Part shown: in pieces, positions 686 to 23,470 of the stretch
Numbering within the stretch: position 1 is the first letter of the stretch
Layout: each line of letters begins with the position of its first letter
Translations under genes and position numbers: made by a program
DNA from: a virus
Taxonomy: Duplodnaviria > Caudoviricetes
Length of the DNA: 29,748 nt
IMG/VR virus record: IMGVR_UViG_3300020042_007480
Coordinates: 1-29,748 of that record
Strand: one strand, 5' to 3'
The notes under the pieces: generated by a model
What the model was told of the DNA's origin: nothing
Database searches by the model: none
Seen by the model: the letters and a program-made list of their open reading frames with translations, nothing else

Positions 686-727
686 AGTTTAGCCGCACTT
701 AACGGAATTAGTCAAGCGCTACTTAAC
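686..727 (-). promoter_or_regulatory. PR-like promoter with two 17-bp operators
   Basis: Operators GTTTAG-ccgca-CTTAAC (687-703) and GTCAAG-cgcta-CTTAAC (711-727); minus-strand TTGACT(715-710)-18 bp-TAAACT(691-686). Confidence 0.8.
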
Positions 728-761
728 CACTAAAGAAACCGAACCCTGTAGGCTCATACAC

Positions 762-1115
762 ATGACGACCATCGGATCAAGAATGAAACAACTCAGGATG
801 CATACCGGACTATCCGGCGAGCGCTTTGGCGAACTCGTGGGCGTGACCAAATCATCGGTATCTCAATGGGAAAGCGACGACACCATGCCGGATACCGCAA
901 TCCTGATAAAGTTAGCCGCGAAACTAGATTTTTCAATGGACTGGCTACTCACCGGAAATGGCTATGCGCCTGATGCAAACCGGCCCCTACTCGCGCTGAT
1001 GAAAGTTGCTGAAAAACTACCCGACGACGCATTGACCTACCTTACTAGGCAGGGCGATGATCTTGCACAATTGCTCAAACCCGGCGAAAATAAAAAAACA
1101 GGCAACGGCCAGTAG
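762..1115 (+). CDS. cI: CI-like XRE-family repressor with no S24 peptidase domain
   Basis: IGSRMKQLR...SGERFGELVGVTKSSVSQWE...MDWLLTG is a typical XRE HTH; divergent from cro. Confidence 0.85.
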   Translation: MTTIGSRMKQLRMHTGLSGERFGELVGVTKSSVSQWESDDTMPDTAILIKLAAKLDFSMDWLLTGNGYAPDANRPLLALMKVAEKLPDDALTYLTRQGDDLAQLLKPGENKKTGNGQ

Positions 1116-1172
1116 AAACATCTTAAGCCTGCAAATACAGACACAATTCAGGTTTTAAACCACGAGGAAACC

Positions 1173-1277
1173 ATGGAAATAATCGTCGCAGTCTTCATAA
1201 TCCTGTTCATGTTCCTGGTTGATTACCGCCTCAACAAAATCGTCCAAGAACTCAAAAAGCTCAACGCAAAATCTTAA
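1173..1277 (+). CDS. 34-aa membrane peptide (not in ORF track)
   Basis: GAGGA RBS then MEIIVAVFIILFMFLVDYRLNKIVQELKKLNAKS*. Confidence 0.6.
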   Translation: MEIIVAVFIILFMFLVDYRLNKIVQELKKLNAKS

Positions 1278-1569
1278 AATCCTGATCTGTCGATGCGCCA
1301 GTATCATACTGGCCATTGGACTTGCCACACCCGTCGCGCCGGCCACACTCCGCAGCAGCGCACCCCGCGCCGCGTTCATGCGCAGCACACCATGCCCAGC
1401 TACAGGCACCGTCCAAAAACGCTGCCCAGGCTACATCGTCGACCACATCATCCCTTTATGCCTAAACGGGCCTGACAACCCATCTAATATGCAATGGCAA
1501 ACCATCGCCGACGCCAAAGCCAAAGACCAAGAAGAACGCCGCCTCTGCGCCTTAAATCGTAAAATTTAA
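1219..1569 (+). CDS. Small HNH-family protein with hydrophobic leader; true start uncertain (~1280-1300)
   Basis: PCPATG...CPGYIVDHIIPLCLNGPDNPSNMQWQT HNH-like motif preceded by IILAIGLATPVA. Confidence 0.7.
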   Translation: MITASTKSSKNSKSSTQNLKILICRCASIILAIGLATPVAPATLRSSAPRAAFMRSTPCPATGTVQKRCPGYIVDHIIPLCLNGPDNPSNMQWQTIADAKAKDQEERRLCALNRKI

Positions 1570-1575
1570 TTATTT

Positions 1576-1617
1576 GTTTAGTGGCGCTTGACATGCTTAG
1601 TTAAGTAGGTCTAAACT
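1576..1617 (+). promoter_or_regulatory. PL-like early promoter with two 17-bp operators
   Basis: GTTTAG-tggcg-CTTGAC (1576-1592) and GTTAAG-taggt-CTAAAC (1600-1616); TTGACA(1588)-18 bp-TAAACT(1612); same layout as PR. Confidence 0.85.
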
Positions 1618-1654
1618 GCGTTCCATGGATCGAATTAAACATGGAGCGCTCAAA

Positions 1655-1840
1655 ATGACAACCGCCGCCCTCAAATCCGCCTACACCAGCGCCGGCCTAT
1701 GGCGCCAAGGCAAGAGCTTCGCCGACTGCCTGGCCTGCCCACTACTGCGCCGGCAATTGGAGCGCCACGCGGCCGCCATGATCACGCTGGCGCAGCGACG
1801 CGGTGAACGTGTACCGGCGCAGCAGGCATTGCCGCTATGA
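1655..1840 (+). CDS. Hypothetical early protein
   Basis: GGAG RBS before ATG 1655 (ORF track starts at 1625); ATGA overlap with the next gene. Confidence 0.65.
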   Translation: MTTAALKSAYTSAGLWRQGKSFADCLACPLLRRQLERHAAAMITLAQRRGERVPAQQALPL

Positions 1841-2073
1841 CCGACTACGCACGCACCCTAGACAAAGCCATGGTCGAAATCAGCATCGCCAAAGAACTCG
1901 GCCCGCGCGCCGGCCATGCCGTGTTGGTGCAAGCGCGGTATCACCTGAATTTGGCTATGGAAGACGCAGCACACCAAGAGAAACGAGAGAACCGGGTATG
2001 CCCGGCGGTAGCTGACCATATTGTTGACGCCAACAATATGGAAACCGTAACAGCCGCAACGGTGAGCCGATAG
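1837..2073 (+). CDS. Hypothetical early protein
   Basis: ATGA coupling with the upstream ORF; operon orientation. Confidence 0.6.
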   Translation: MTDYARTLDKAMVEISIAKELGPRAGHAVLVQARYHLNLAMEDAAHQEKRENRVCPAVADHIVDANNMETVTAATVSR

Positions 2074-2109
2074 CGCCGTGACAGCCTGAGAGCAAGGCAC
2101 CAACCATAA

Positions 2110-2466
2110 ATGGAGAATTTCATGAAAACAAGACCGTTTTTCGACACCGCACGCGATATCCGGCGCGGCCAATTTTTAGACGAATGCGCGGACAAAATGC
2201 AGGAGGTGATCGCCGCCTGCGCCGAGCACAACAAAAAAGCCACGCTCACCATCGAAATAACCGTGGCGCCGGCGTCTCGCACCGGCGGCGCGGTGAAGGT
2301 GAGCGACAAGATCAGCACCAAGCTGCCGGGGCAAGATCGCGGCGAGACCATCTTGTTTGTCACCACCGACAACAACCTATCGACCAGCGACCCGCGCCAG
2401 AAATCCCTGGATCTGAAAGCCGTGGTCGACACCGAAACCGGCGAACTCAAAGCCATCAACGAATAA
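2110..2466 (+). CDS. Conserved phage protein of the type usually found upstream of DUF2303
   Basis: PFFDTARDIRRG...ILFVTTDNNLSTSDPRQKSL; GGAG RBS suggests the start is ATG 2122. Confidence 0.75.
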   Translation: MENFMKTRPFFDTARDIRRGQFLDECADKMQEVIAACAEHNKKATLTIEITVAPASRTGGAVKVSDKISTKLPGQDRGETILFVTTDNNLSTSDPRQKSLDLKAVVDTETGELKAINE

Positions 2467-2474
2467 GGACCATC

Positions 2475-3320
2475 ATGATCGAACCCACAACCCAAAAAAC
2501 GGAAGCCGAATCCATTGCGGCCATCGCCGCAAAGCCGGAAGTGATTACCATAGGCCAAACACCCGCCGTGATTTTGCCTGACGGTCATACCCTCACGCCA
2601 TACGAAGAAATGCTGCAAACGCCAACGCGCAAACGCGGCACGGTACACCTGCACGAATCCGAAAGCTTTATCGACTACACCAAACGCCACGGCTCGCTGG
2701 CATCGTGCAACATCTATCTGGATGTTGACTACGCCAAACAACACGTCAAAGCCACCGCGATTTTCAATGACCACGCCGATGGCGACGGCCTGCCAGGCTG
2801 GCGCGACCACAGCGCAGAATTCGCGCCCCGCTTTACTGAAGAATGGCGGCGCTGGATCGCCAACAGCGGCCAAGTAAAAAGCCAAACCGATCTGGCTAAT
2901 TTTCTGGAATCGAACATCGGCGACATCACCAGCCCGGCCGGCAGCAACCTACCCACCGGCGCCGACGTGCTGACCTTCGTATCCGCGCTGCAAGAAACGC
3001 GGAAAATAAAATACGGCAGCGCCATCAACACCACGAACGGCATGATGCAGATCGAATTCACCGAAGACAACGACATCGCCACCAAGGGCAAACTCGACCT
3101 GTTCCGAGAATTCGCCATCGGCGTGCGCCCGTTTCTCAACGGCCAGGCCTATGAAGTGCGCGCCCTGCTGCGCTACCGCATCGACCGCAACACCGGGCAA
3201 ATAGCATTCTGGTACGACCTGCAACGCGCAGACCGGGTGCTGGAAGACGCCTGCAAAAGCATCGTCGACGCCATCCGCAACCAGACCGGAATGCCGGTGG
3301 TTTTCGGCACGCCAAACTAA
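2475..3320 (+). CDS. DUF2303 (YfdQ-like) family protein
   Basis: RKRGTVHLHESESFIDY, PGWRDHSAEF, ALLRYRI, PVVFGTP motifs; AAGGA RBS before ATG 2475. Confidence 0.85.
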   Translation: MIEPTTQKTEAESIAAIAAKPEVITIGQTPAVILPDGHTLTPYEEMLQTPTRKRGTVHLHESESFIDYTKRHGSLASCNIYLDVDYAKQHVKATAIFNDHADGDGLPGWRDHSAEFAPRFTEEWRRWIANSGQVKSQTDLANFLESNIGDITSPAGSNLPTGADVLTFVSALQETRKIKYGSAINTTNGMMQIEFTEDNDIATKGKLDLFREFAIGVRPFLNGQAYEVRALLRYRIDRNTGQIAFWYDLQRADRVLEDACKSIVDAIRNQTGMPVVFGTPN

Positions 3321-3331
3321 AGGTGATCGCC

Positions 3332-3502
3332 ATGCAAATCATCATCCCCAGCAACGCCCATGTGATCGACATCGCGCGCCAGGCCAGCGCCCAGCACCTA
3401 CACCTGCTCACCGACGGCCGCCGCACGGTACTCAGCCCGATCATCACCCCAGGATGGTACAAGATCGGCGTGCGAATCAAAAAAGGGCGGCAAGCCGCAT
3501 GA
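3332..3502 (+). CDS. Hypothetical 56-aa protein (not in ORF track)
   Basis: AAGGTG RBS; MQIIIPSNAHV...KKGRQAA*; ATGA overlap with the next ORF. Confidence 0.65.
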   Translation: MQIIIPSNAHVIDIARQASAQHLHLLTDGRRTVLSPIITPGWYKIGVRIKKGRQAA

Positions 3503-3711
3503 ATTGGCAACTCCTCAAACACGCCGCCGAACTGCTGGACGCCGAAGCGCGCGGCCTGCGCATGGCGCACACACCAGACGGCAACGGCGACTGGGACGGC
3601 GAACCGGAAGCAAAAGCCGCACACGACGACATGCACAACACCGCAAACGCTTTGCGCGCAATGGCAGAAACACAAAACCAATCACCACCAGAGAGGAAAC
3701 GCAAATGCTAA
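3499..3711 (+). CDS. Hypothetical protein
   Basis: MNWQLLKHAAELL..., coupled start. Confidence 0.6.
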   Translation: MNWQLLKHAAELLDAEARGLRMAHTPDGNGDWDGEPEAKAAHDDMHNTANALRAMAETQNQSPPERKRKC

Positions 3712-3890
3712 TCCAAACCGAAGGCGGCTCACCAAAACACATCGACCCCGTGCCACACGTCGCACGGGTGCCCAGCAAACGCGAAGCCGAAGCCGCATTC
3801 TGCCGCATGCTCGCTGCCTTGACCTACACCCAAGCCGACACCCTGGAAAACGATGTCGAAATCGTGAAGAGCTTTTTATGGAGCCGGTGA
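3705..3890 (+). CDS. Hypothetical protein
   Basis: GAGG RBS, MLIQTEGG... Confidence 0.6.
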   Translation: MLIQTEGGSPKHIDPVPHVARVPSKREAEAAFCRMLAALTYTQADTLENDVEIVKSFLWSR

Positions 3891-4180
3891 TTTATGGATT
3901 GCTGGGCGGCGTTGTTGGGATTTTTTTAATGCTCATCACAACCTGCGTGATCGGCAAAATGAACGAAGAGATACCAGAAAAACGGACACGCATACAAACC
4001 AGAAAAAACGCCGACAAGATCGGCATGGCGTACCGATGCGAGGCGTTGACTCTATCGCAAGCGGTGCTCAGGTTACGAGAAATCGAGGTTCCTGTGGAAT
4101 CTATAAACAGGATATTGCGCACGCGCGTTAACGCAAAAGTCAGCGGCGCCGGCACGGCGTCCGCTGGACTACCGGGTTAG
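3878..4180 (+). CDS. Hypothetical protein with N-terminal TM segment; reads through attC-A
   Basis: VIYGLLGGVVGIFLMLITTCVI; the last 16 aa are encoded by the attC. Confidence 0.6.
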   Translation: MEPVIYGLLGGVVGIFLMLITTCVIGKMNEEIPEKRTRIQTRKNADKIGMAYRCEALTLSQAVLRLREIEVPVESINRILRTRVNAKVSGAGTASAGLPG

Positions 4181-4182
4181 GG
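4126..4182 (-). other. attC-A recombination site (57 bp)
   Basis: Minus strand CCCTAAC-ccggt-AGTCCAGCGGACGCCGTGCCGGCGCCGCTGACT-tttgc-GTTAACG; unpaired G (~4167) and T (4160) when the plus strand folds. Confidence 0.9.
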
Positions 4183-4191
4183 GCGATTTAT

Positions 4192-4244
4192 TTTGATAGC
4201 GCACTACAAATAACTCTTGACATTGTTTGATTACGCACTACAAT
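4192..4244 (+). promoter_or_regulatory. Cassette-internal sigma70 promoter with tandem 18-bp operator-like repeats
   Basis: TTGACA(4217)-16 bp-TACAAT(4239); TTTGATAGCGCACTACAA (4192-4209) and TTTGATTACGCACTACAA (4226-4243). Confidence 0.75.
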
Positions 4245-4276
4245 AAGAACTGTACACAAACAAAACGGAGAGTGAA

Positions 4277-4474
4277 ATGAAAACAGCCTACGAACTTCTG
4301 ATGACCGCCCCGGATAGCCAAGTAAAGCGGGCACAGATCGCCTTTAAGGCGGTGGCCGATGGTCGGTGGCTTGACGCGGCGTACAGCCTGCGCAATGCGG
4401 CGAACGAAGAAACCGGCCAGTGGGCGAACGAAGCCCGCGAACTGGCGGAACACTGCGAACAGGTGGCGGCGTGA
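4277..4474 (+). CDS. Cassette 3 ORF1, small helical hypothetical protein
   Basis: GGAG RBS, 65 aa. Confidence 0.75.
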   Translation: MKTAYELLMTAPDSQVKRAQIAFKAVADGRWLDAAYSLRNAANEETGQWANEARELAEHCEQVAA

Positions 4475-4635
4475 TGCGCCGCTTTTTGTGCGCCATCGGG
4501 CTGCACCGATGGACATACCTGCCGAACACAAACGGCGGGCGGCCGATGCGCAGGGAGTGCTGTTGCGGAAAGAAGCAGGGTTGGAATTACGGCGTTGCGC
4601 GGGAGCACGGCGTGATTTTGTGGGAGGACGCATGA
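4474..4635 (+). CDS. Cassette 3 ORF2, small Cys/His (possibly Zn-binding) protein
   Basis: MRRFLCAIGLHRW...RECCCGK; TGATG and ATGA overlaps with neighbours. Confidence 0.65.
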   Translation: MRRFLCAIGLHRWTYLPNTNGGRPMRRECCCGKKQGWNYGVAREHGVILWEDA

Positions 4636-4817
4636 GCGCGCAACGCGGTGGCCCAGGGCGCGGCCAAGGGCGCAAGCCGATCAAGGAGGGGCAGGACACC
4701 GTGACGGTATCCCTACGCATGACTGAAGCACAACGCGACAAGCTGGCGCTGCTCGGTGGGGCTGAGTGGGTACGCCAGCGGATCGACAAGGCGAAAGCCC
4801 CTAACGATCAAACATAA
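4632..4817 (+). CDS. Cassette 3 ORF3, ribbon-helix-helix-like DNA-binding protein
   Basis: GGAGG RBS; RGGPGRGQGRKP arm, alternating TVTVSLRM strand, then two helices (AEWVRQRID). Confidence 0.7.
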   Translation: MSAQRGGPGRGQGRKPIKEGQDTVTVSLRMTEAQRDKLALLGGAEWVRQRIDKAKAPNDQT

Positions 4818-4859
4818 CCGGCTGGCTTTAGCCAGTCCGCGTTGATGGCCGTGTTAGGC
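4799..4859 (-). other. attC-B recombination site (61 bp)
   Basis: Minus strand GCCTAAC-acggc-CATCAACGCGGACTGGCTAAAGCCAGCCGGTTATG-tttgatc-GTTAGGG; unpaired G4844, C4840, T4836 in the plus-strand fold. Confidence 0.9.
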
Positions 4860-4873
4860 CAGAAAGGTGAAAG

Positions 4874-5101
4874 ATGAAACCGGAATTTAGTATGACGAGC
4901 GATAGCGCGGAACCGTTGGTAACAAGCTGCGAGGCACATTGGCGGTTTTCCGGTGGAGCCATGTCAATACGATTTGCGACTGGGCAGGATGCTTTTTCGA
5001 TGGGCAGGCTTGTTGATGAGGCTTATGCGGCGGGGTTAATTGACGGCAGGAAAGAAATTACAGATGCGGTGGCACGCACAGTCAAAGAGTTGAGTGCATA
5101 A
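4874..5101 (+). CDS. Cassette 2 hypothetical protein
   Basis: AAAGGTG RBS immediately after attC-B; the TAA stop lies inside the GCATAAC core. Confidence 0.7.
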   Translation: MKPEFSMTSDSAEPLVTSCEAHWRFSGGAMSIRFATGQDAFSMGRLVDEAYAAGLIDGRKEITDAVARTVKELSA

Positions 5102-5152
5102 CAAGAAAGATCAGCGACGCCGATAGGCGTCGGCTGGAATGTAGTGTTAGGC
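5096..5152 (-). other. attC-C recombination site (57 bp)
   Basis: Minus strand GCCTAAC-actac-ATTCCAGCCGACGCCTATCGGCGTCGCTGAT-ctttctt-GTTATGC. Confidence 0.88.
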
Positions 5153-5175
5153 ACGGCGATAAATAGGAGAGAGAA

Positions 5176-5358
5176 ATGAAAAGCACGCAGATCGAAGCGA
5201 AGGAAGTAAAAGTTGGTGATCGGGTTATTACCGACGAAGGAGCCGTTATTATGGTTACTGAAATTGGGAAGGGGATGCCGTACAACACGATTGAACTTAG
5301 ATGGCGTGGCGGGTGGTTTGCGATAAATCCTACCCGGCTCATTGAGCGGATGGTGTAG
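5176..5358 (+). CDS. Cassette 1 small beta-rich (SH3/KOW-like) protein
   Basis: AGGAG RBS; AKEVKVGDRVI motif; fills the cassette exactly. Confidence 0.7.
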   Translation: MKSTQIEAKEVKVGDRVITDEGAVIMVTEIGKGMPYNTIELRWRGGWFAINPTRLIERMV

Positions 5359-5420
5359 TGCCTAACTTAAATTCGACGACATCAAATGTCCGCGAATCCG
5401 GCGATGATGTCGCCTAACTC
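5358..5420 (-). other. Putative attI site
   Basis: Minus-strand GTTAGGC core (5366-5360) with no attC-type hairpin partner; second GTTAGGC direct copy at 5418-5412; immediately 5' of intI. Confidence 0.7.
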
Positions 5421-5446
5421 GGAAACTGAACACGTAGGAGCTTGAT

Positions 5447-6472
5447 ATGCAAGCACTTGCAGAAAACAACACGACACCATCAACCGTGTTATGCGACACA
5501 CCAGCCAAGCAGCCAAAACTGCTCGACAGAGTTCGCGATCGTCTGCGCGTCAAACACTACGCCTACCTCACCGAGCAAACCTACATCCACTGGATAAAGC
5601 GCTTCATATTTTTCCACGACAAACGCCACCCGCAAGAAATGGGTGCGCCGGAAGTCGAGGCGTTTTTGTCCTACCTCGCCACCGCACGCGACGTGTCCGC
5701 CAGCACCCAAAATCAGGCCATGCACGCCATCCTGTTTTTATATCGCGAAGTGCTGGAAATAAAACTCCCATGGCTCGACGGCATCACCCGCGCCAAAACC
5801 GCCAAGCGCCTGCCGGTGGTGCTAACCGTACCCGAAACGCAAGCCCTGCTGAGCCACACCAAAGGCACACCGGGCCTGATCGTCAAGCTGCTATACGGCA
5901 CCGGCCTGCGCTTGATGGAAGCCCTACGCCTGCGCGTCAAGGACATCGACTTCACCCGCCGAACAATCACCGTGCGCGGCGGCAAAGGCGACAAAGACCG
6001 CGTGACCATGCTGCCCGCATCGCTCATCGAACCGCTGCAAGCCCGCCTAGCCGTGCGGCGAAAAATGCACGACATCGACATCGCCACCAATCACGCCGAT
6101 GTCGAGCTGCCGCACGCCCTCGAACGCAAATACCCAAACGCCGGCAAAGAATGGGGATGGCAGTATATATTCGCCGCCGCTGGCTACAGCGCAGATCCGC
6201 GCACCGGCGTGATCCGGCGCCACCACATCCACGAAAAAACCATCCAGCGCCATGTGAAAGATGCAGCACGCGCCGCCGGCATCCACCAGATCGCAACACC
6301 GCACACCCTGCGCCATAGTTTTGCCACGCATCTGCTCGAAACAGGCACCGACATCCGCACCATCCAGGAACTGCTAGGCCACAGCGATGTTGATACGACC
6401 ATGATCTACACCCACGTGCTGAATCGCGGCCCTGGCGGCGTGCTGAGCCCGCTGGATAGAGTGATTGCGTGA
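5447..6472 (+). CDS. intI: Integron integrase (IntI-type tyrosine recombinase)
   Basis: KLLDRVR...HYAYLTEQTYIHWI N-terminal domain; LYGTGLR, GGKGDKDR, HTLRHSFATH, LLGH, TTMIYTHV catalytic motifs; IntI-specific insertion VELPHALERKYPNAGKEWGWQYIF; AGGAG RBS. Confidence 0.95.
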   Translation: MQALAENNTTPSTVLCDTPAKQPKLLDRVRDRLRVKHYAYLTEQTYIHWIKRFIFFHDKRHPQEMGAPEVEAFLSYLATARDVSASTQNQAMHAILFLYREVLEIKLPWLDGITRAKTAKRLPVVLTVPETQALLSHTKGTPGLIVKLLYGTGLRLMEALRLRVKDIDFTRRTITVRGGKGDKDRVTMLPASLIEPLQARLAVRRKMHDIDIATNHADVELPHALERKYPNAGKEWGWQYIFAAAGYSADPRTGVIRRHHIHEKTIQRHVKDAARAAGIHQIATPHTLRHSFATHLLETGTDIRTIQELLGHSDVDTTMIYTHVLNRGPGGVLSPLDRVIA

Positions 6473-6753
6473 CCCGATACAAAACCATCCGCCAGTTTGC
6501 CATCGAATCCGGCTACACGGAGCATGCCATTCGTGGCAAAATCCGCGACGGCATCTGGCTAGAGGGGCGAGTCTGGAAGCGAGCCCCGGACGGTCATCAA
6601 CTAATCGACATCGAGGGTTATCACCAATGGGTAGAGAACGGCAACGGACTGGCGTGCGACCGGCCTCGGCAAGCTCGATCCAAATCGCGTTCACCTATCG
6701 CGGCATCCCCTGCCGTGAGCGAATCAAACTCCAGCCCACCACCGCTAACCTAA
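6469..6753 (+). CDS. xis: Excisionase-like protein
   Basis: YKTIRQFAIESGYTEHAIRGKIRDGIWLEG...IDIEGYHQWVE; GTGA overlap with the intI stop; overlaps the int start. Confidence 0.8.
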   Translation: MTRYKTIRQFAIESGYTEHAIRGKIRDGIWLEGRVWKRAPDGHQLIDIEGYHQWVENGNGLACDRPRQARSKSRSPIAASPAVSESNSSPPPLT

Positions 6754-7814
6754 AGCGCGCCGAGCAACACCGTGGCGCGATACTCGACGCCATCGAGCGC
6801 GGCACATTCGACTACGCAAAAACATTCCCGGAATCGCCGAACAGATTTCTGTTCGCAGAACAAAAAGGCGCGGGGTACAAATTAGAAATCTATCTCGAAA
6901 CATGGCTAGGACGCCAGGCCGCACACCTCAAGGCCAGCACCCTCGACGACTATAAAAAAATCGTCATGCACACCCTGATCCCCGAGATAGGCCAAACCTA
7001 CATCACCGACCTCAAGCGCGCGCAGATCCGCGATCTGTGTGAAAAATCAACCGCGAGCAACAAGCGGCTATCAAATATCCAGAGCGTGCTGCGCAAAGCG
7101 CTGCACGATGCCATCGACGACGACCTGATCGAAACCAATCCGCTCTATGGCTGGAAATACGCCCGCAAAGAAGCGCCAAAAACAATCGACGACATCGACC
7201 CATTCACAGCCGAAGAGCAGACCGCAATCCTGAACGCCTGCCGCGAACCTCAATGCCGCAACCTATTCCAGTTTGCATTTTGGAGCGGTCTAAGAACATC
7301 AGAGCTAATCGCCCTGGAGTGGGGCGACATCGACTGGCAGCGCGGCATCGTGCGCGTGAGCCGCGCCAAAACCCAGGCCAGCGACACGGCCGAGGGAACC
7401 AAAACACGGCGCGGCACGCGCGACGTGAAACTGCTAGCGCCGGCCATATCGGCACTCACATCACAAAAAGCGCACACCCATCTAGCCGGCGGCGCCGTGT
7501 TCCAGAACCCACGCACTGGCGAGCCATGGACAGGAGACCAACCAATCCGCCACGGCGCATGGACGGCCGCTCTAAAAAAGGCCGGCATCCGCTACCGCCG
7601 CCCCTATCAAACGCGCCACACCTACGCCAGTATGATGCTCAGCGCCGGCGAATCGCCCATGTGGGTCGCCGCGCAAATGGGACATGCAGACTGGAGCATG
7701 ATCGGGCGCGTTTATGGGAGATGGATACGGGATGCGGCGCCGGAGGCTGGCAATAAAGCGGTAGAAATGTTCGGCGCACCGCCTAAAAAAGAGGCTGCGC
7801 TAAAGCTGCGATAG
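6627..7814 (+). CDS. int: Phage integrase (tyrosine recombinase with arm-binding domain)
   Basis: SIQIAFTYRG arm domain; WSGLRTSE, GTKT, YQTRHTYAS, QMGH, RVYGRW; probable start MGRERQ at 6627. Confidence 0.93.
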   Translation: MGRERQRTGVRPASASSIQIAFTYRGIPCRERIKLQPTTANLKRAEQHRGAILDAIERGTFDYAKTFPESPNRFLFAEQKGAGYKLEIYLETWLGRQAAHLKASTLDDYKKIVMHTLIPEIGQTYITDLKRAQIRDLCEKSTASNKRLSNIQSVLRKALHDAIDDDLIETNPLYGWKYARKEAPKTIDDIDPFTAEEQTAILNACREPQCRNLFQFAFWSGLRTSELIALEWGDIDWQRGIVRVSRAKTQASDTAEGTKTRRGTRDVKLLAPAISALTSQKAHTHLAGGAVFQNPRTGEPWTGDQPIRHGAWTAALKKAGIRYRRPYQTRHTYASMMLSAGESPMWVAAQMGHADWSMIGRVYGRWIRDAAPEAGNKAVEMFGAPPKKEAALKLR

Positions 7815-7961
7815 CTAGGCTATTCAGGGCTTATTTTATGGCAACATCAAAAACACAATATCAATTAAATCAATAAGATACTGGCGGAGAGGGCGGGATT
7901 CGAACCCGCTTTAAGCCTTTACTGGCGCGGCTTCCAGGGCATGGCTGCGATAAAGCTGCGA
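7793..7961. other. attP: tRNA-Ser 3'-end core (7882-7909) flanked by arm-type direct repeats
   Basis: Reverse complement of 7882-7909 is GCGGGTTCGAATCCCGCCCTCTCCGCCA (T-arm, acceptor strand, G-CCA); GGCTGCG(C/A)TAAAGCTGCGA at 7793-7811 and 7943-7961; AT-rich IHF-like tract at ~7855-7880. Confidence 0.88.
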
Positions 7962-7962
7962 A

Positions 7963-8217
7963 TCACCGGCTTTTAGACGGCGCTTCGCCAACATCCTTTG
8001 TGCAAAGTTTTCTCCAGGCCGCGACCTTCCCCTGGTCTCTTCCATAACGGCGGTCAAATGCCCCGACTGTGATGCCGTCGCACATCAGATATTCCAGATC
8101 GGCCAGGGCAATATCAGCCGCAGTGGCCGCTTTTTCCGCCACGATCGTGGCATAGCCGTGCGTTGCGGCGCAGCCGGAGAGCAGCAGCGAGATCAGTAGC
8201 AACGACACGGCCTTCAT
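7963..8217 (-). CDS. Lipoprotein, spanin-like
   Basis: Signal peptide with lipobox LLSGC; at the end of the lysis cluster. Confidence 0.7.
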   Translation of the reverse strand: MKAVSLLLISLLLSGCAATHGYATIVAEKAATAADIALADLEYLMCDGITVGAFDRRYGRDQGKVAAWRKLCTKDVGEAPSKSR

Positions 8218-8423
8218 AGCAGCACCACCTTCTTGTCGGCCTTGATGCGGCCGTAAATTGCCAGCAGCGCCATGATCAGGCCCGTGATGTTTGTCGCCAG
8301 GTCGGCCGGGTCAATGGCTGCGCCGCTGGAAAGCTGGCTGATGATTTGACCGGCAAACACAATCGCCGCGCCGGCGCCGCCGGTAACGCCCTTGCTTGTC
8401 AGCATCGCTTTTGTTTCTTGCAT
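8214..8423 (-). CDS. Small two-TM protein, holin-like
   Basis: Two hydrophobic segments, AIYGRIKA basic tail; AAGGA RBS. Confidence 0.65.
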   Translation of the reverse strand: MQETKAMLTSKGVTGGAGAAIVFAGQIISQLSSGAAIDPADLATNITGLIMALLAIYGRIKADKKVVLL

Positions 8424-8449
8424 GATCGTTCCTTTCTTGTGTGGTTACT

Positions 8450-8647
8450 CTATTCGTCGTCTGGTTCCAGGTTATGGATAATCAGCCAATGCTCTATTTC
8501 AACGTCCTTGCACTTGATTCCCAGCTTGTTGGCAACGCCCTGTGCTATCCCTGGCAAAATCCTATCCAGCGCATCATGCGCGGCATCCGTACTGCTCACT
8601 GATACCCGCATGGATATGCGCGACCAGTATTTTTCAGGCTTGGTCAC
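8450..8647 (-). CDS. Hypothetical protein in the lysis cluster
   Basis: GTG start overlapping the endolysin TGA; the upstream part of the tracked ORF (to 8791) is likely spurious. Confidence 0.5.
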   Translation of the reverse strand: MTKPEKYWSRISMRVSVSSTDAAHDALDRILPGIAQGVANKLGIKCKDVEIEHWLIIHNLEPDDE

Positions 8648-9171
8648 TCCACGCCAAGAACGTGCTTTGCGCGTTGCCAGTACCCCAGTCGGTCGGTCAT
8701 GCCGTTGTAGCCGCCATTGATTTTTCTGGTAATGAGTTTGAAATTGTTCACGTCTGCCAATTGGTTTAAACCCTTCCAATGCCAAAACCAAGCAGCGGAA
8801 CGAAAGCCGTTTTCCGGCATCTCCAGCAATTCAGGGCTGGTAATCAATGGCAGGTTCAACGCCGTGCCGCACGTCCGGTAATTCGCACGGCCGGTAATCT
8901 GTATCGGGCCGCGCCCTTTGTAGCGCACGCCGTCTCCCGGTTCGGTATTCCCTAAATCGAGACGTCCTTCATACGCTTCGCCGCTGGCCAATTCTTTCCA
9001 GTAGCGCAACTGGCCAGACTCATGCGCCAACTGTGCCAGGAAAGCGGCCTCGCGCTCTGGCGTGACAATCTGAAATTCCTGCATTGCTGAATTCAGCAGC
9101 CCGCAGTAGATGTCGCACTTGTCACGGCTCAATAGCGTCATGATTTGCCGTAGGTCGTCAGGGGTAATCAC
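8644..9171 (-). CDS. Endolysin, glycoside hydrolase family 19 (chitinase-like)
   Basis: AAFLAQLAHESG, YKGRGPIQITGRANY, SAAWFW, ITRKINGGYNG; GTG start at 9171 overlapping the upstream stop. Confidence 0.92.
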   Translation of the reverse strand: MITPDDLRQIMTLLSRDKCDIYCGLLNSAMQEFQIVTPEREAAFLAQLAHESGQLRYWKELASGEAYEGRLDLGNTEPGDGVRYKGRGPIQITGRANYRTCGTALNLPLITSPELLEMPENGFRSAAWFWHWKGLNQLADVNNFKLITRKINGGYNGMTDRLGYWQRAKHVLGVE

Positions 9172-9476
9172 TCGCCCCTCCAGTTTCCAGTTTTCAGGAA
9201 CACCCACAGCGCGCCTGCAAAAATCAGAATCGGCAGCAGTGTCTTAGCGAAGGCCGATACAAACTTGATCGTCAACCAAAACCCCTTGGCGTTGTTGAAG
9301 GCTTCCAGCACCTCAGCTATTCGGCCAACGTTCTCGGACAGGGTTGCCAGCGTCTCGGATATTTTTTTATTACTCTCGAGCAGTCCGGCAATGGAGTCCT
9401 CGCAATCCTGCAACCGCGCGTGGACGTGCATCATTGCGTCGCCAGATCGTTTGTGCTGCTCCATGTCGTCTTTCAT
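9168..9476 (-). CDS. Coiled-coil protein with C-terminal TM, holin/antiholin-like
   Basis: Heptad region followed by a hydrophobic C-terminus; precedes the endolysin. Confidence 0.6.
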   Translation of the reverse strand: MKDDMEQHKRSGDAMMHVHARLQDCEDSIAGLLESNKKISETLATLSENVGRIAEVLEAFNNAKGFWLTIKFVSAFAKTLLPILIFAGALWVFLKTGNWRGE

Positions 9477-9532
9477 TGGCCGTCCTTTTTGTTATTATTT
9501 TTTCTTAGCCTTCTCGGAGTTGAAGTTATTTA

Positions 9533-10978
9533 TCACTTCCAATTCACCTTATGAGCCGCAACACCGGGCGGCAAGGAGACCCCAACGAGCGGCACGTTAT
9601 CAATATACAGATACCCACCATGCAGCAATTCCCCGACGCTCTCGCCCTGATCGTGCAGGTTGTAGAGTCGTTCCAACATCGCGCCGACCGGATCGAGCAG
9701 CACGATGGTTTTTCCGGTTAGGTTGTTTCCCAGGAACGGATGTGGGATCAGTGGCATGTCGAAATTTTTCAGGGATTGGTCGATCTCTACCAGTACATCC
9801 GGGGCGTTTTTGATCGCCAGCGCGTAGGCATCGCGCTGCGCGAACGGAATCTCACGAGTTTTTTTGTTGCGGAAGGATACAGGGATACCAGAAAAATCTT
9901 TGCGCCGCTTGTACTTTTTCCCGGTCACGGGGTCGATGTAGTCCGGGCGAATATCCGTTGGGCCGTTGTAGGCCCAGGGCGGGTCTTGTGCGACATAGGT
10001 CATCAGCACTTGCTTGGTCGTGCTGTCGATAACACCAAACACAAATAACGGTATATCCCCATTACCCAGGTTGTATGGGGGCGATGCTGTGGCATACCGC
10101 TGAGACGCATACTGGATTCCCCCGCCAGTGCCATCATAAGATAGATTCACAAAGGCGGCAGCGGTCGTAGTATTGGTGACATTGCCGGCGAACGAAGCGG
10201 TTAGCTCTGGAAACGAGCCGACACCATTCCATCTAAATTGCGGGTAAAACCCATAACTACCTCCAGGCAGCGTGAGATTAGCACTTCCCGAGACTTCACC
10301 GGTAGTGGTTTTCAACTGCGACTGCCCCACCGAGGCCGCGCTCAACCCGGTGACCGTACAAGCTACCGTCAACGTCTCATTTGACCCACCGCTCCCTTCA
10401 GTCAGCGTGATGCCCGTTCCAGCAACCAATTTCCCGTTTAAATAACCAGGCGTTGTATCGTCACTCGAAACCTTAGACTTTCCTGCTCCAAATCCGATGG
10501 TCTTGAATGCCGAACCACTGCACTGGATCACCAAAGAATCACCCTGCCCGAGCGTGATGGTCGACGCACCATCCACCAGCTCACTGGCATTCGGGTCGAT
10601 GGTGATCACGCCCGACCCGCTGTTTCGAACATAGCAATACCAGCCATCTGCCAGGGTCGCGGCGGCGGTCATGGTGAGGCTGAATGTCCCGCTGGTGCAA
10701 TCGATCAACTTGCCGCGATCCGCGGCCAACACCGTATAGGCTGTGGTTTTGGCCAGGTAAGGCAGGTTCGCGTGTAGCTTATCTGCCGTGCCTGCACTTT
10801 GTGATTCTGTCGTGAGCCCGTTGCCGATCTGCAATTGCGCCAACCCGCCCAGGGCATCCAGCAGCAGATTGAATTTATCAACCACACCCACCAGGTCTGT
10901 GAGGATCGCCTGCTTAGGATCGTCCGCGCTGGAATCGCTGTTTGCCTTGGTGGCATCGCTCGGTAAGGTCGTGCTCAT
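9533..10978 (-). CDS. Tail fibre / receptor-binding protein
   Basis: KTTAYTVLAADRGKLIDCT...YVRNSGSGVITIDP fibre module, Thr/Gly/Ser-rich; follows the central fibre gene. Confidence 0.75.
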   Translation of the reverse strand: MSTTLPSDATKANSDSSADDPKQAILTDLVGVVDKFNLLLDALGGLAQLQIGNGLTTESQSAGTADKLHANLPYLAKTTAYTVLAADRGKLIDCTSGTFSLTMTAAATLADGWYCYVRNSGSGVITIDPNASELVDGASTITLGQGDSLVIQCSGSAFKTIGFGAGKSKVSSDDTTPGYLNGKLVAGTGITLTEGSGGSNETLTVACTVTGLSAASVGQSQLKTTTGEVSGSANLTLPGGSYGFYPQFRWNGVGSFPELTASFAGNVTNTTTAAAFVNLSYDGTGGGIQYASQRYATASPPYNLGNGDIPLFVFGVIDSTTKQVLMTYVAQDPPWAYNGPTDIRPDYIDPVTGKKYKRRKDFSGIPVSFRNKKTREIPFAQRDAYALAIKNAPDVLVEIDQSLKNFDMPLIPHPFLGNNLTGKTIVLLDPVGAMLERLYNLHDQGESVGELLHGGYLYIDNVPLVGVSLPPGVAAHKVNWK

Positions 10979-19856: not shown

Positions 19857-21248
19857 TCATTGCACCGTTAAAGTTCGAGTTTCACGCGCGATGGTCAGCA
19901 CCCGCGTTTCCAGCGGGATGGTCAGGGTTCGATACGGATCGAGCACCACCGAATTGCTGTCGTTCGACGCCGCCGCCACCAACGCCGCGCCGGGGCCGAT
20001 CAGCGCGCCGGTGGTGGCATGCATCCGCACCACGGCCGCCGTGCCGGCCAGCGCCGCGCCGCCGCCGATTAAAATACCGCTGGCGGCGTGCGCGGTTAAG
20101 CGCGCCGCCGCGCCGGAAACAGCCGCGCCTGGCCCGGTTAAAGCCCCGGATGTGGCATGCGCACCCTCCACCGCGTGATCTGCACTGCCAGAGACGGATG
20201 CGCCCGACCCCGCCAGAGCGCCGGATGTGGCGTGTGGGATATTGTGTACGGATACGCCTGCAACAGAAGAACCTGCGCCAGTAAGCGCGCCGCTAGTCGC
20301 ATGCTGCCGGTAGCGTGTAGCCGTTCCCGCAATCGTAGAACCTTGCCCCGTCAAAGCGCCGCTGGTGGCATGCTTGGCAATGTGGGCCGATGTACCGGCA
20401 ATGCTGGACGCTTGTCCTGTTAGAGTGCCGCTTGTTGCGTGAGTGGCCGCACCCCCCGCACTCGGCAAGTAGATGTTGCGCGATTGGGGCAGTAGCAGCG
20501 AATACGTCTCACGGTAAAATTTATTCGCTATTTTTAAAGATGGAGCCTGATTTATTATTGATATGGCACCAATAGCACCATCGAAATAATCAGCAAATCC
20601 CGGGTAGTCTCGACGCCCTGCATATAAGCTAGTCGTCGTGTTTTGCATTAACCCTGTTGTGCTACCACTACCTGCATATAGGGTAATGGGCTCACCATTT
20701 AGATATGCGACAATATCGGACGATCCGTCAGTGCTACCAATTACAAGCCAATAGTATTTGCCGTTTTCAAGCACAGAAGCAGCAGAATACTTCTGATAAT
20801 AAGTGCTTCCAGATACAAATCTAGTGTGGCCAAAAGACCCCACGTCACCATTTCCGGTATTATCTGTACCGTTCGGGTTTATCTCTATAGTAAATTGTCT
20901 GCCTGTGTCTTTATCCTTGCCAAGCAGCATTTCTCTGCGAGTGCCCCCCATAGCATCAGGGCGGAACAGTATGCATATAGAGTATGCACCAGCGAAGTTT
21001 ACAGACTCAACATCTCCAAAATTTACACTTGACGAAGTACCATTAAATTCTAGTATTCTGCCGCCAGGGAATACGCCAGATGCAATATCGGTATTAGCGC
21101 CTTTTAACAGTCCACAAGCATCATGTAACCCCGAACCAACAGGGTAAAGGAAGCTTGTTACACCATTTGCGTCAGGGTTATTCCGATCAATCCCAACCGG
21201 GTACTGCGGCTGGGTAGTCCTAACGATCCGCTGTTTTATAATCCCCAC
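19857..21248 (-). CDS. LamG/ConA-like domain protein with repeat stalk (putative accessory fibre)
   Basis: LEFNGTSSSVNFG...YLNG...YFDGAIG lectin-like N-terminal half; seven HATSGxLxG repeats. Confidence 0.75.
   Translation of the reverse strand: MGIIKQRIVRTTQPQYPVGIDRNNPDANGVTSFLYPVGSGLHDACGLLKGANTDIASGVFPGGRILEFNGTSSSVNFGDVESVNFAGAYSICILFRPDAMGGTRREMLLGKDKDTGRQFTIEINPNGTDNTGNGDVGSFGHTRFVSGSTYYQKYSAASVLENGKYYWLVIGSTDGSSDIVAYLNGEPITLYAGSGSTTGLMQNTTTSLYAGRRDYPGFADYFDGAIGAISIINQAPSLKIANKFYRETYSLLLPQSRNIYLPSAGGAATHATSGTLTGQASSIAGTSAHIAKHATSGALTGQGSTIAGTATRYRQHATSGALTGAGSSVAGVSVHNIPHATSGALAGSGASVSGSADHAVEGAHATSGALTGPGAAVSGAAARLTAHAASGILIGGGAALAGTAAVVRMHATTGALIGPGAALVAAASNDSNSVVLDPYRTLTIPLETRVLTIARETRTLTVQ
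19965..20441 (-). repeat. Seven ~23-aa coding repeats HA(T/A)(S/T)GxLxG
   Basis: Visible in the translation of 19857-21248. Confidence 0.85.
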
Positions 21249-21257
21249 GTTATAACT

Positions 21258-21737
21258 TTACGCAGTCGCGCCAACGTCGGTTTTGGGCGAGACTTTCAGC
21301 GTCCAGCCGATGGGGATATTGACCGCAAGGCCATTGCTGATAAAAAACTCGCAAGCACCAGCACCCGCGCTATCGCCTGGAAGCGGAACATCTACAGCGT
21401 GCACATAGTGCGTGGTCGAAGCAGTCGTCGCGTAAGGGATTGTGAAGTTGCCAACAAGCTTTGCTTGATTGCTCGCTGTCGGCACTGGGTCGTCGTTCGT
21501 GCTGTCAATATTCAGATCACGCCGCCACAGATAGACTTGCTGCGATGCCGACGTTACAGCGGCAGTTGGCGCAATCATCAGCGTAATATCAGCGCGCGGG
21601 TATTTAATCGTGTTGGTGCTAGACAGCGCGGTTGATACGTCCGACGCGGGACTGTAAGCGCCAGCCGCTAAACTCGTGCCGCTGCCAATATGAACGATCT
21701 GCGTAGTCGCAGAAACTTTTGCACTTGCATCAGGCAT
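21258..21737 (-). CDS. Hypothetical beta-rich virion-associated protein
   Basis: AGGAGG RBS; Ser/Thr/Ala-rich; precedes the LamG gene. Confidence 0.65.
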   Translation of the reverse strand: MPDASAKVSATTQIVHIGSGTSLAAGAYSPASDVSTALSSTNTIKYPRADITLMIAPTAAVTSASQQVYLWRRDLNIDSTNDDPVPTASNQAKLVGNFTIPYATTASTTHYVHAVDVPLPGDSAGAGACEFFISNGLAVNIPIGWTLKVSPKTDVGATA

Positions 21738-22386
21738 TTTTAGCCTCCTTGTAGTCTTTCCAGTTCCAAGCAGCGCCGCCCAAATGGGTTACGAGCTTGC
21801 TTGCGTCTTGATCCAAGTAAACCTTGTAACCAGCGTCCCGAGCTTTCTCGTATAGCGGGTTATCCTCAGTCGTGTAGCTGTTGGTTTCCGGGATAAACTG
21901 CGGTGCGAACCAAGGCTGGGGAACGGCTTTAAACACTTCAATGTCGAACAGCGAAACCCCGAAACCCGAATAGGCAATGGAGCGCATGCCGGTCGAGTTC
22001 TCCAACGTCGGCACACGCTTGCCCTTTAAGTCCACCGCCACGAAAGAATCTTTCGCTTCGGTTTTAATCAGGTAATTGGTGCAGACAATTGACTGTCTGC
22101 GCCCTAGCATCACGTCCAAGACTTGCGGCTCGAACACCATGTCGTCATCCAGAAACATTAAGTGAGTCATACCGCCATCGATGGCGCGGCGAACTAACTG
22201 CTCTCGATTCGTGATCCAGTTGGTGGACTCCACCACGTCGATTTTGACCTCGATAGTTGCTTCGGGGCGGGTTGTGATGCCGTGTGCCGCTACCTTGCTA
22301 ATCATCCCGGCCAGGGAGTAAGCAAACCCCATCCGGCAAGAACCAGCCGTTGGAATAGCAATTACGAGCTTAATTTCATCAGCCAT
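21730..22386 (-). CDS. GT-A fold (GT2-like) glycosyltransferase
   Basis: LVIAIPT, NREQLV, THLMFLDDDMVF (DxD), GFGVSL, TEDNPL, GYKVYLD...VTHLG. Confidence 0.8.
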   Translation of the reverse strand: MADEIKLVIAIPTAGSCRMGFAYSLAGMISKVAAHGITTRPEATIEVKIDVVESTNWITNREQLVRRAIDGGMTHLMFLDDDMVFEPQVLDVMLGRRQSIVCTNYLIKTEAKDSFVAVDLKGKRVPTLENSTGMRSIAYSGFGVSLFDIEVFKAVPQPWFAPQFIPETNSYTTEDNPLYEKARDAGYKVYLDQDASKLVTHLGGAAWNWKDYKEAKNA

Positions 22387-22570
22387 CTAAATCCGTTTCT
22401 GGCCCGGCGATAAAAGTCGCAGCCGTTAAGTACATATCTGTCGCCCCTTTTCCGCGCAACCGGCGGAACTCTACGATTGCTTCCTCATACGTCAACCCTG
22501 TTGCAAGTACAGACCAAAACCCACCGGCAACATCAAAGCGTAAAATCACAAATCTCGGTAAATTAAGCAC
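22379..22570 (-). CDS. Hypothetical protein
   Basis: Fills the gap in the late operon and overlaps the next start. Confidence 0.5.
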   Translation of the reverse strand: MLNLPRFVILRFDVAGGFWSVLATGLTYEEAIVEFRRLRGKGATDMYLTAATFIAGPETDLDG

Positions 22571-22580
22571 GCCAGTCTTC

Positions 22581-23063
22581 TCAATTGAACATCTCCGCCA
22601 CTTCGTTGAGCGTCAGGCCGCCGATGTAGCTGCGGTCAAGCGCGATCACTGTGCCGGTGGTTTTCGTTGTGCCGCCAAGAACAACTTCGATGCGCTTAGC
22701 GTTCTCAGTAGCAGCAAGCAAGATGGCTTCCGCGTTGCTTGCTGCGGTAGCTGAACCCCAAACATCAGTAACCCACTTGCGTACTTTGTTGCGCGTGTAG
22801 TTACGAGAGGTGCGCAGGAACAGCGACCACGAATCACGCTTGCCTGCCGCCAATGAGTCGTAGGTGCTGTAGTCTGGGGCGTCGTCGGAGTCGTTCGACG
22901 GTACATCCACGCGCCAAGCTTTCGTCACTTGGCTTGCGTTCGCGCTCATTGCTTCGGCAATGGCGAAGTAGTCAGTGCCAGGGCCAGATGTCATCGTGCC
23001 TAGCAAGGGATCGGCGATGATGTATGCTTTGACTGTTGCTTTTTGTGCGTCGGTTAGTGCCAT
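22581..23063 (-). CDS. Hypothetical virion-associated protein
   Basis: 160 aa in operon orientation, poly-G RBS. Confidence 0.7.
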   Translation of the reverse strand: MALTDAQKATVKAYIIADPLLGTMTSGPGTDYFAIAEAMSANASQVTKAWRVDVPSNDSDDAPDYSTYDSLAAGKRDSWSLFLRTSRNYTRNKVRKWVTDVWGSATAASNAEAILLAATENAKRIEVVLGGTTKTTGTVIALDRSYIGGLTLNEVAEMFN

Positions 23064-23080
23064 GATTTACCCCCCCCTTT

Positions 23081-23470
23081 TTATGCGCTTAACGCCGTAT
23101 AAGTCAGCGACGAACAGCTCACAGTGTCCCCAGCCGTAATGGTCAGGCCGTTGCTCATGTTGATATCGCTGGCCGATGCCGCGACCGCGCAATGGATTAC
23201 CACCGTTCCGCCGGAAGTCTCCAGGGTGGCCGTCGCCACCGCAGACGCATTGCCGGCGGCGTTGGTGTCGCTGGTGATGGCGTTTGCCGTGGCCGTGCCG
23301 GTGGACGATGCACCGAATGCTGTGGCGCTCAGAGAGAGTGTTGCCGCCGCCGTGCCGGGCGCACCGACCGTGCCGGATGTGCGGAATTTCAGTTTACCGC
23401 TGGCGCCGATTAGGGCCGTGACGGCATCGGTTGCGGCGTTACGCGCCGCTGTGCTGTGGGTTACTGCCAT
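23081..23470 (-). CDS. Small Ala/Thr/Ser-rich structural protein (fibre or decoration)
   Basis: HSTAARNAATDAV...LSATAFGAS...ITAGDTVSCSSLTYT. Confidence 0.7.
   Translation of the reverse strand: MAVTHSTAARNAATDAVTALIGASGKLKFRTSGTVGAPGTAAATLSLSATAFGASSTGTATANAITSDTNAAGNASAVATATLETSGGTVVIHCAVAASASDINMSNGLTITAGDTVSCSSLTYTALSA

Follow-up and report, generated by a model that had tools for sequence, protein, structure and literature searches.

The stretch analysed here (the window) was the whole of the partial virus record IMGVR_UViG_3300020042_007480 (29,748 bases) and contained, at positions 4126-6472, an integron composed of an integron integrase gene (intI), an attI site and three gene cassettes bounded by attC sites. 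PHROGs annotation of 47 open reading frames (ORFs) typed the window as a temperate tailed phage, with a CI-like repressor, a plus-strand early operon, an excisionase gene (xis) and a tyrosine integrase, followed by minus-strand lysis, tail and head genes. As the original prediction had stated from the letters alone, a complete integron lay in the early operon directly before xis and int, and the stop codon of intI overlapped the start of xis (GTGA); the prediction had overlooked that the cassette genes were inverted relative to their attC sites. The array flanks included phrog_204/210, and the PHROGs scan of the 47 ORFs turned up no transposase, no resistance gene and no host gene, in agreement with the claim that only phage genes surrounded the element.

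The integrase, its sites and the cassettes

The intI gene (5447-6472, plus strand) encoded a putative recombinase of 341 amino acids (aa) that matched TIGR02249 with 474.6 bits (cut-off 265; profile positions 1-315) and aligned with VchIntIA (PDB 2a3v; E 4.9e-91) without a break across the IntI-specific insertion. Its frame was open, and residues R155, K180, H286, R289, H312 and Y321, which we take to be the catalytic set, were invariant in 62 aligned homologues; the intact IntI that had been claimed was thus borne out. The ratio of nonsynonymous to synonymous substitution rates (dN/dS) was 0.07-0.22 in 11 pairs, indicating purifying selection. No LexA-type box (CTG[TG]-N8-[AC]CAG) was found in 1501-6500; such a box before intI is common in integrons, although not universal. 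Class 1, class 3 and betaproteobacterial chromosomal integrons shared with the window their integrase family, tree neighbourhood, attC geometry and intI orientation. The window differed from them in its integrase (~56% identity to IntI1 and IntI3), its bottom-strand genes, the overlap of intI with xis and the lack of a transposon and of a LexA-type box in the regions scanned. With 55.8% identity to IntI1 and 56.5% to IntI3, a separate branch in the tree and no transposase in the PHROGs scan, it falls outside the Tn402-type, IntI1 and IntI3 groups, and no plasmid IntI reached 60% identity among the best 5000.

A covariance model trained on 40 attC sites taken from other viral contigs, with the window's own left out, recovered all three of the predicted 57-61 bp hairpins; it replaced a hand-made attC scan that had overlooked the middle site. 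The sites, all with their top strand on the minus strand, belonged to cassette 3 (4126-4182; 57 bp, 44.1 bits), cassette 2 (4799-4859; 61 bp, 41.8 bits) and cassette 1 (5096-5152; 57 bp, 23.8 bits), with crossovers after 4131, 4804 and 5101, respectively. They were the sole full-length matches, the next match in the 29.7 kb being partial (10.9 bits). Covariation in the seed set was 0.401 compared to 0.155 after shuffling, a difference with a positive bias, as the seeds had been picked for pairing. Read on the plus strand, which is the attC bottom strand, the layout was AAC, a spacer of 6-7 nucleotides (nt), a stem with a bulged G on its right arm, a 5-nt spacer and GTT, and all three hairpins carried R and L boxes and extrahelical bases.

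The attI site (5364-5422) consisted of the core AAC (5364-5366; crossover between 5365 and 5366), a conserved AT-rich box and GACA/TGTC repeats. The 18-base motif at 5364 was present in 32 viral contigs, in 18 of which an intI match started 64-109 bp downstream (15 full length, 3 partial), while two had an intI fragment upstream of the motif. Seven further contigs (L004, L009, L010, L023, L032-L034) were set aside as chance occurrences, having neither intI nor a cassette core before the motif. Contigs with identical IntI had the same sequence from AAC on and different sequences before it, which marks attI and, together with the spacing of the motif, upholds the predicted attI-like core just 5' of intI.

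The cassettes measured 673, 297 and 264 bp, exactly as predicted. Cassette 3 (4132-4804, plus strand) contained a candidate promoter of its own and three ORFs of 65 aa (phrog_34498), 53 aa and 61 aa, with a hairpin resembling a terminator between the first two. The last of these ORFs (4632-4817), which ended inside the attC of the neighbouring cassette, had no Pfam or PHROG match and looks by eye like a small DNA-binding regulator. The candidate promoter (4217-4244, plus strand; TTGACA-16-TACAAT, 11/12 consensus positions) was kept in L348 and L349, which carry related cassettes, and overlapped an 18-nt direct repeat (4192-4209 and 4226-4243) that is possibly an operator. Cassette 2 (4805-5101, plus strand) carried a 75-aa ORF (4874-5101) whose stop ended exactly at the crossover and which showed a weak likeness to a cassette ORF of the related contig L020 (25% over 59 aa; pairwise E 9e-5). 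Cassette 1 (5102-5365, plus strand), with a 60-aa ORF (5176-5358), adjoined attI and is probably the newest of the three. An atlas search with the ORFs of cassettes 1 and 2 returned unnamed clusters only (0.90-0.91). The terminal cores, predicted to be complementary as expected of a linearized circle, paired at 9/9 positions in the 673-bp and 264-bp cassettes; the 297-bp cassette, given as 6/7, paired at 6/9.

Reversed orientation of the cassette genes

All three attC top strands lay on the minus strand, and all cassette ORFs with a ribosome site or a homologue were on the plus strand, i.e. the attC bottom strand. The cassette genes were reversed with respect to bacterial cassettes and co-directional with the early operon and intI. 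The layout of the sites was normal, with attI at the 5' end of intI and attC top strands directed away from it. In the viral loci 105 of 106 sites upstream of intI were likewise on the minus strand, and the plus strand of the window had the layout of the aadA7 bottom strand in the supplement of PMC9892861. According to the available portions of PMC5027507 and PMC8946536, it is the attC bottom strand that recombines, which normally orients genes under the promoter Pc.

The reversal was shared by related viral loci. In 37 viral loci, window included, a ribosome-site-led ORF after the site was found on the bottom strand in 79 of 125 cassettes and on the top strand in 8, compared to 1 and 14, respectively, of 41 cassettes in 12 bacterial loci. 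Backward genes prevailed in 26 of 28 loci of the IntI clade described below (two ties, none forward), while the 12 bacterial loci comprised nine forward, one backward-leaning and two uninformative. Pfam matches were obtained for 19/117 bottom-strand ORFs and 0/112 top-strand ORFs, a test for which duplicates from near-identical loci were removed by eye and to which the window contributed six bottom-strand and four top-strand ORFs, none with a match. These ribosome-site and Pfam tests replaced voting by the longest ORF, which had proved unreliable for gene direction where the DNA is GC-rich (65 vs 34 of 100). An integrase with reversed strand preference acting on normally oriented genes was also considered and was excluded by natural breakpoints at the bottom-strand AAC.

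The orientation was set against two published arrangements. Inverted-integrase integrons, named in the accessible parts of PMC8352920 and bioRxiv 2022.02.06.479319, have intI directed like the cassette genes, as does the window. As this group is commonly defined, a flipped integrase gene goes with normal cassettes. In the window, in contrast, intI was normal relative to the sites (intI on plus, attC top strands on minus) and the genes were flipped, which places it outside that group. Insertion in the wrong orientation by top-strand recombination, described by Nivina et al. 2016 (PMC5027507, from its available text) as never observed in mobile or chromosomal integrons, likewise leaves the gene facing attI. 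It turns the whole cassette together with its attC, whereas in the window attC was normal and only the gene was reversed, and this held in whole arrays. Judged by its integrase, attI and attC sites, the window element is an integron, and it is one that lacks the forward genes of canonical Pc-driven integrons.

Since the cassette genes are reversed relative to attC, the array fits a phage operon without Pc. No minus-strand sigma-70 promoter that could be a Pc candidate was matched in 716-8000, a consensus scan that can miss real promoters. Terminator-like scores were obtained for two of the three attC sites on the top strand and for none of them on the bottom strand, an asymmetry that would suit read-through in the direction of the operon. 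A phage-resident integron with reversed cassette polarity is, with good confidence, our reading of the locus.

Several further features of the arrays were recorded. The cassettes (4132-5365) were G-rich on the plus strand (skew +0.13 to +0.34), on which intI and the resident early genes were C-rich, and the plus-strand cassette skew exceeded that of intI in 30 of 33 viral loci; single-strand exposure of the bottom strand could produce such a skew. Among the 79 ribosome-site-led viral cassette genes, 16 stopped exactly at the crossover and 24 inside the attC of the next cassette, so that the C-termini of some proteins depend on the neighbouring cassette. At the viral locus L060 (3062-6951), IntI grouped with the chromosomal-type rows L116 and L122; its cassettes were backward in 4/5 cases, those of L122 forward, and L060 is possibly an independent recruitment. 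Other phage IntI lineages that fall outside the clade (L060, L113, L098/L101 and L108) seem to share this polarity, a sign that recruitment may have occurred more than once. A different arrangement, with intI upstream of the array, forward genes and long attC sites, was found in L002 (KX853513, Virus Rctr41k; 4680-10100), L080, L090, L100 and L106.

Cassette turnover and a phage clade of IntI

Closely related phages differed by whole cassettes. L001 and L194 were 100% identical except for two cassettes (269 and 1013 bp) missing from L194. L036 and L037 had flanks of 98.6-99.9% identity around different cassettes (451 and 836 bp in L036 only; 616, 757, 468 and 293 bp in L037 only), and L061, L064 and L083 had identical IntI and different first cassettes. 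Every natural break fell at the AAC left of a hairpin (AA|C crossover), so the hairpin travels with the gene to its right, and cassettes move as attC-bounded units in these three sets. The four variable core bases paired fully as a circle in 68 of 86 distinct viral cassettes; full pairing inside the linear site occurred in 3/86, and 1000 shuffles gave 5.4 on average (maximum 14). Different cassettes at the same locus, a comparison that the original prediction had proposed, were also found in L020. Its repressor, early promoter, attI (93% over 56 bp) and the pair of genes preceding the array were shared with the window, its three cassettes were others, two of them methylase-like by sequence, and intI, xis and int had been lost.

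Some junctions were irregular. In L020 (5285-5305), a cassette junction had the first attI bases in place of a hairpin, a collapsed site that presumably resembles products of aberrant attI recombination. Relatives of cassette 3 lay between attC sites in L348 and L349, and the hairpin body of the window's cassette 3 (95%) was found on a different cassette of L349, which suggests that attC bodies may be swapped between cassettes. The prophage locus L297 (G708:C31; 1469-3966 and 17529-19196) had three attI-like sites. Two of them lay on either side of intI, and the third closed another array, which had no intI and was located downstream of the terminase.

Turnover of this kind might also proceed mainly in trans, through integrases of the host or of co-infecting phages, or by homologous recombination between attC sites that resemble each other, the phage's own intI being dispensable. 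The intI-less attI arrays of L020, L021, L026 and L028, the second array of the G708 prophage and the backward array without intI in MW202573 are what such a process would leave, and IntI1 recombined five of six phage attC sites in PMC9892861. We nevertheless consider it unlikely, as intI was intact and conserved across the clade and the breakpoints lay in the AAC core between dissimilar sites; the attC-attI junctions of L001 and L194 shared only ~10 bp, unlike homologous recombination.

Recurrence of the junctions in other phages also bears on the authenticity of the contig. The window was a single partial contig whose positions 1-115 were an exact copy of 565-679, the start of a cro-like gene (215 nt at 91% with the flanks), a duplication that is either an assembly artefact or a real tandem duplication. 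That a host integron was fused to a phage contig during assembly is nonetheless scarcely credible, given that the junction from orf3705 and orf3878 through attC to attI recurred in L020, that the intI-xis-int junction recurred in L299, and that a contig of read run X2, differing at 21 positions, covered 6206-6502 and with it the end of intI and the beginning of xis. At 5367, a contig from run X1 was joined to a different sequence that ended in a cassette-like core. Only 0.10 of the words were present in X1 and X2, whose contigs were short and came from relatives. Among the joints listed, none fitted a deletion of 264, 297 or 673 bp, and no contig spanned the array, which makes the runs uninformative on excision.

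An alignment of close homologues retrieved at least 80 viral loci with IntI identities of 48-72%. In an IQ-TREE phylogeny of 124 rows, with which FastTree agreed, the window fell in a clade of 54 rows (SH-aLRT 100) composed of 48 viral contigs, three metagenome contigs, two prophage-like genome loci and the window itself, while IntI1 and other bacterial rows fell outside; a phage-dominated clade, which the original prediction had proposed to look for, therefore emerged, nearly all of it viral or prophage. One genome row (L125), with an IntI identical to that of L087 and L088, a contig as long as that of L088 and so probably the same element, had been merged before the tree was built. The two genome loci came from G708, a prophage with repressor, terminase and integrase, and from G215, which had a methylase cassette, an xis-like gene and an integrase; both genomes had been picked because they share a family or order with an Azonexus genome. 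The scan of genomes for IntI covered the best ~600 stretches, and absence of the clade from chromosomes lies outside its scope. The clade was nested among betaproteobacterial IntIs, from which an ultimately bacterial origin follows.

Of 49 clade loci that were scanned, with 90 of their 112 listed ORFs, 34 had a phage integrase within ~2.5 kb downstream of intI. Other loci had primase, ParB, RusA, portal, capsid or tail genes downstream, and four were without a match; these varied neighbours indicate that the carriers are mosaic phages and not one lineage. Conversely, among 49 viral loci with relatives of the window's phage integrase, intI lay directly before xis only in the closest, L299; in L300 it was 3.3 kb upstream, and the remaining 47 had none in the DNA examined, so that the integron appears as an optional module at a standard spot. 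Domestication of the integron by phages, proposed in the original prediction, is supported at the family level by the phage-dominated clade, the shared attI, purifying selection, the recurrent position and the cassette-exact differences.

That the window instead holds a passive, recently captured piece of a host chromosomal integron, as in Vibrio and Shewanella prophages, is in our view very improbable. Such captures have been published (PMC9892861), and the nesting of the clade among betaproteobacterial IntIs is compatible with one. However, the bacterial arrays analysed here, as well as TJE1 and M16-3 from that study, had forward genes by the gene-direction test, no host gene flanked the element, and the attI motif, with one mismatch allowed, occurred in only 2 of 401 genomes of one betaproteobacterial family, one an apparent chance occurrence without intI in the locus and the other a prophage.

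Phage setting, function and significance

Upstream of the integron, the last fixed early gene (3878-4180, plus strand) ran through the first attC and stopped in its R'' box, and its L020 homologue likewise adjoined the first attC. A PL-like promoter (1588-1617, plus strand; TTGACA-18-TAAACT), the probable driver of the operon holding the array, was a consensus match located in a 53-nt inverted repeat with a PR-like region (686-738), and was 81% identical over 42 nt to its counterpart in L020. The repressor ORF was only 117 aa long; neither it nor the LexA-box scan gave grounds for SOS control. Downstream lay xis (6469-6753, plus strand; phrog_9668, E 3e-25), the phage tyrosine integrase (6660-7814, plus strand, start putative; phrog_1, E 9e-61) and a likely attP core (7881-7909) whose 29 bp were identical to the 3' end of the tRNA-Ser(GGA) gene in G708, a 28-base core being exact in G215 as well. 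This tRNA match points to a betaproteobacterial host. No match was obtained in an Rfam scan of the window, no tRNA in an ARAGORN scan, and no relative when the phrog_210 protein was used as query against the viral contigs. Between the head and tail genes (19857-23470) several ORFs had no PHROG match, and the GC content was low (0.43-0.55 at 20501-23000).

If the phage-resident integron works by established IntI chemistry, IntI would recombine the folded bottom strand of attC (the window plus strand) with double-stranded attI, placing a new cassette beside intI, and excision would proceed by attC x attC recombination with the junction resolved by replication. Transcription would start at the early promoter (1588-1617) or at the cassette promoter (4217-4244) and yield one transcript through intI, xis and int, and backward genes would have no need of Pc. 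Production of IntI would then coincide with early-operon expression, during infection or induction, and phage replication could supply the single strands and resolve the junction. Such a system would probably serve to pick up and drop small early accessory genes rapidly, among them genes for DNA modification and counter-defence.

The cargo of the phage arrays gives some content to the last point. The 19 bottom-strand ORFs with Pfam matches comprised seven DNA methylases, two Mom and three DHH proteins, and single matches to a PAPS-reductase-like protein, an Rv2179c-like exonuclease, a ClpX-type zinc finger, DUF5131, DUF7736, a Tad2-like protein and Lar; some of these scored below the gathering score, and the Lar match (L108) came from a locus not placed in the clade. 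On the wider view, betaproteobacterial phages run an integron of their own, with a long-lived clade of IntI and attI that is tied into the early operon, a separate pool of backward cassettes rich in modification and counter-defence genes, a polarity barrier and repeated recruitment. We hold this to be plausible, at about even chances. The barrier is a hypothesis by which promoterless bacterial cassettes, many of them anti-phage, would not be expressed in the phage, nor would phage cassettes be expressed from a bacterial Pc.

Several observations weigh against these interpretations. The five cassette ORFs of the window had no functional match in Pfam or PHROGs; the case for a counter-defence role therefore comes from other phages, and from only 19 of 117 ORFs. 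The promoters were consensus matches only, six being found compared to 4.4 ± 2.2 in shuffles. No excised circles were seen, and activity of the window IntI is inferred only. In the DNA examined, five of the 32 contigs with the attI motif had no intI match (L020, L021, L024, L026 and L028) and three further ones had a partial intI, which implies that arrays persist without their own integrase. The L349 counterpart of cassette 3 (603-667, 1340-2126) had the same ends with another hairpin body and another middle gene, a mismatch not explained by simple bottom-strand exchange. Finally, close homologues served as queries in the searches behind the clade, which listed at least 80 loci, and such sampling favours a clean-looking clade.

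Integrons in phage genomes as such are already known. Qi et al. 2023 (PMC9892861, here and below from its available portions) reported three complete integrons, one In0 and 17 clusters of attC sites lacking an integrase (CALINs) among 10,705 phage genomes, and interpreted the complete integrons as fragments derived from the host or from class 1 integrons; partial genomes, the class to which Rctr41k belongs, were excluded. The phage-resident integron of the window is therefore real and not unprecedented, contrary to the novelty originally implied. The published elements shared with it intI, attI and attC arrays, methylase cargo and attC sites usable by IntI1; the window differed in its phage-dominated IntI clade, its own attI and its backward genes. 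By the gene-direction test the CALIN of MW202573 was backward as well, which goes unremarked in the text of PMC9892861 as available. The literature searched, mostly without subscription papers, contained no description of such an IntI clade in phages or of arrays with backward genes.

Integrons are usually treated as bacterial devices. Their arrays have been portrayed as anti-phage libraries (bioRxiv 2024.07.02.601686 and 2024.07.02.601719, in the parts accessible). A phage lineage with its own active integron, if true, would turn this picture around: small early genes would be exchanged in mosaic fashion by a site-specific machine, and the attC boundaries would then flag candidate counter-defence genes. 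Selectivity for the bottom strand is held to serve the orientation of genes under Pc, a rule that the backward cassettes call into question, and the occurrence of whole cassette pools in either polarity bears on how cassettes are made.

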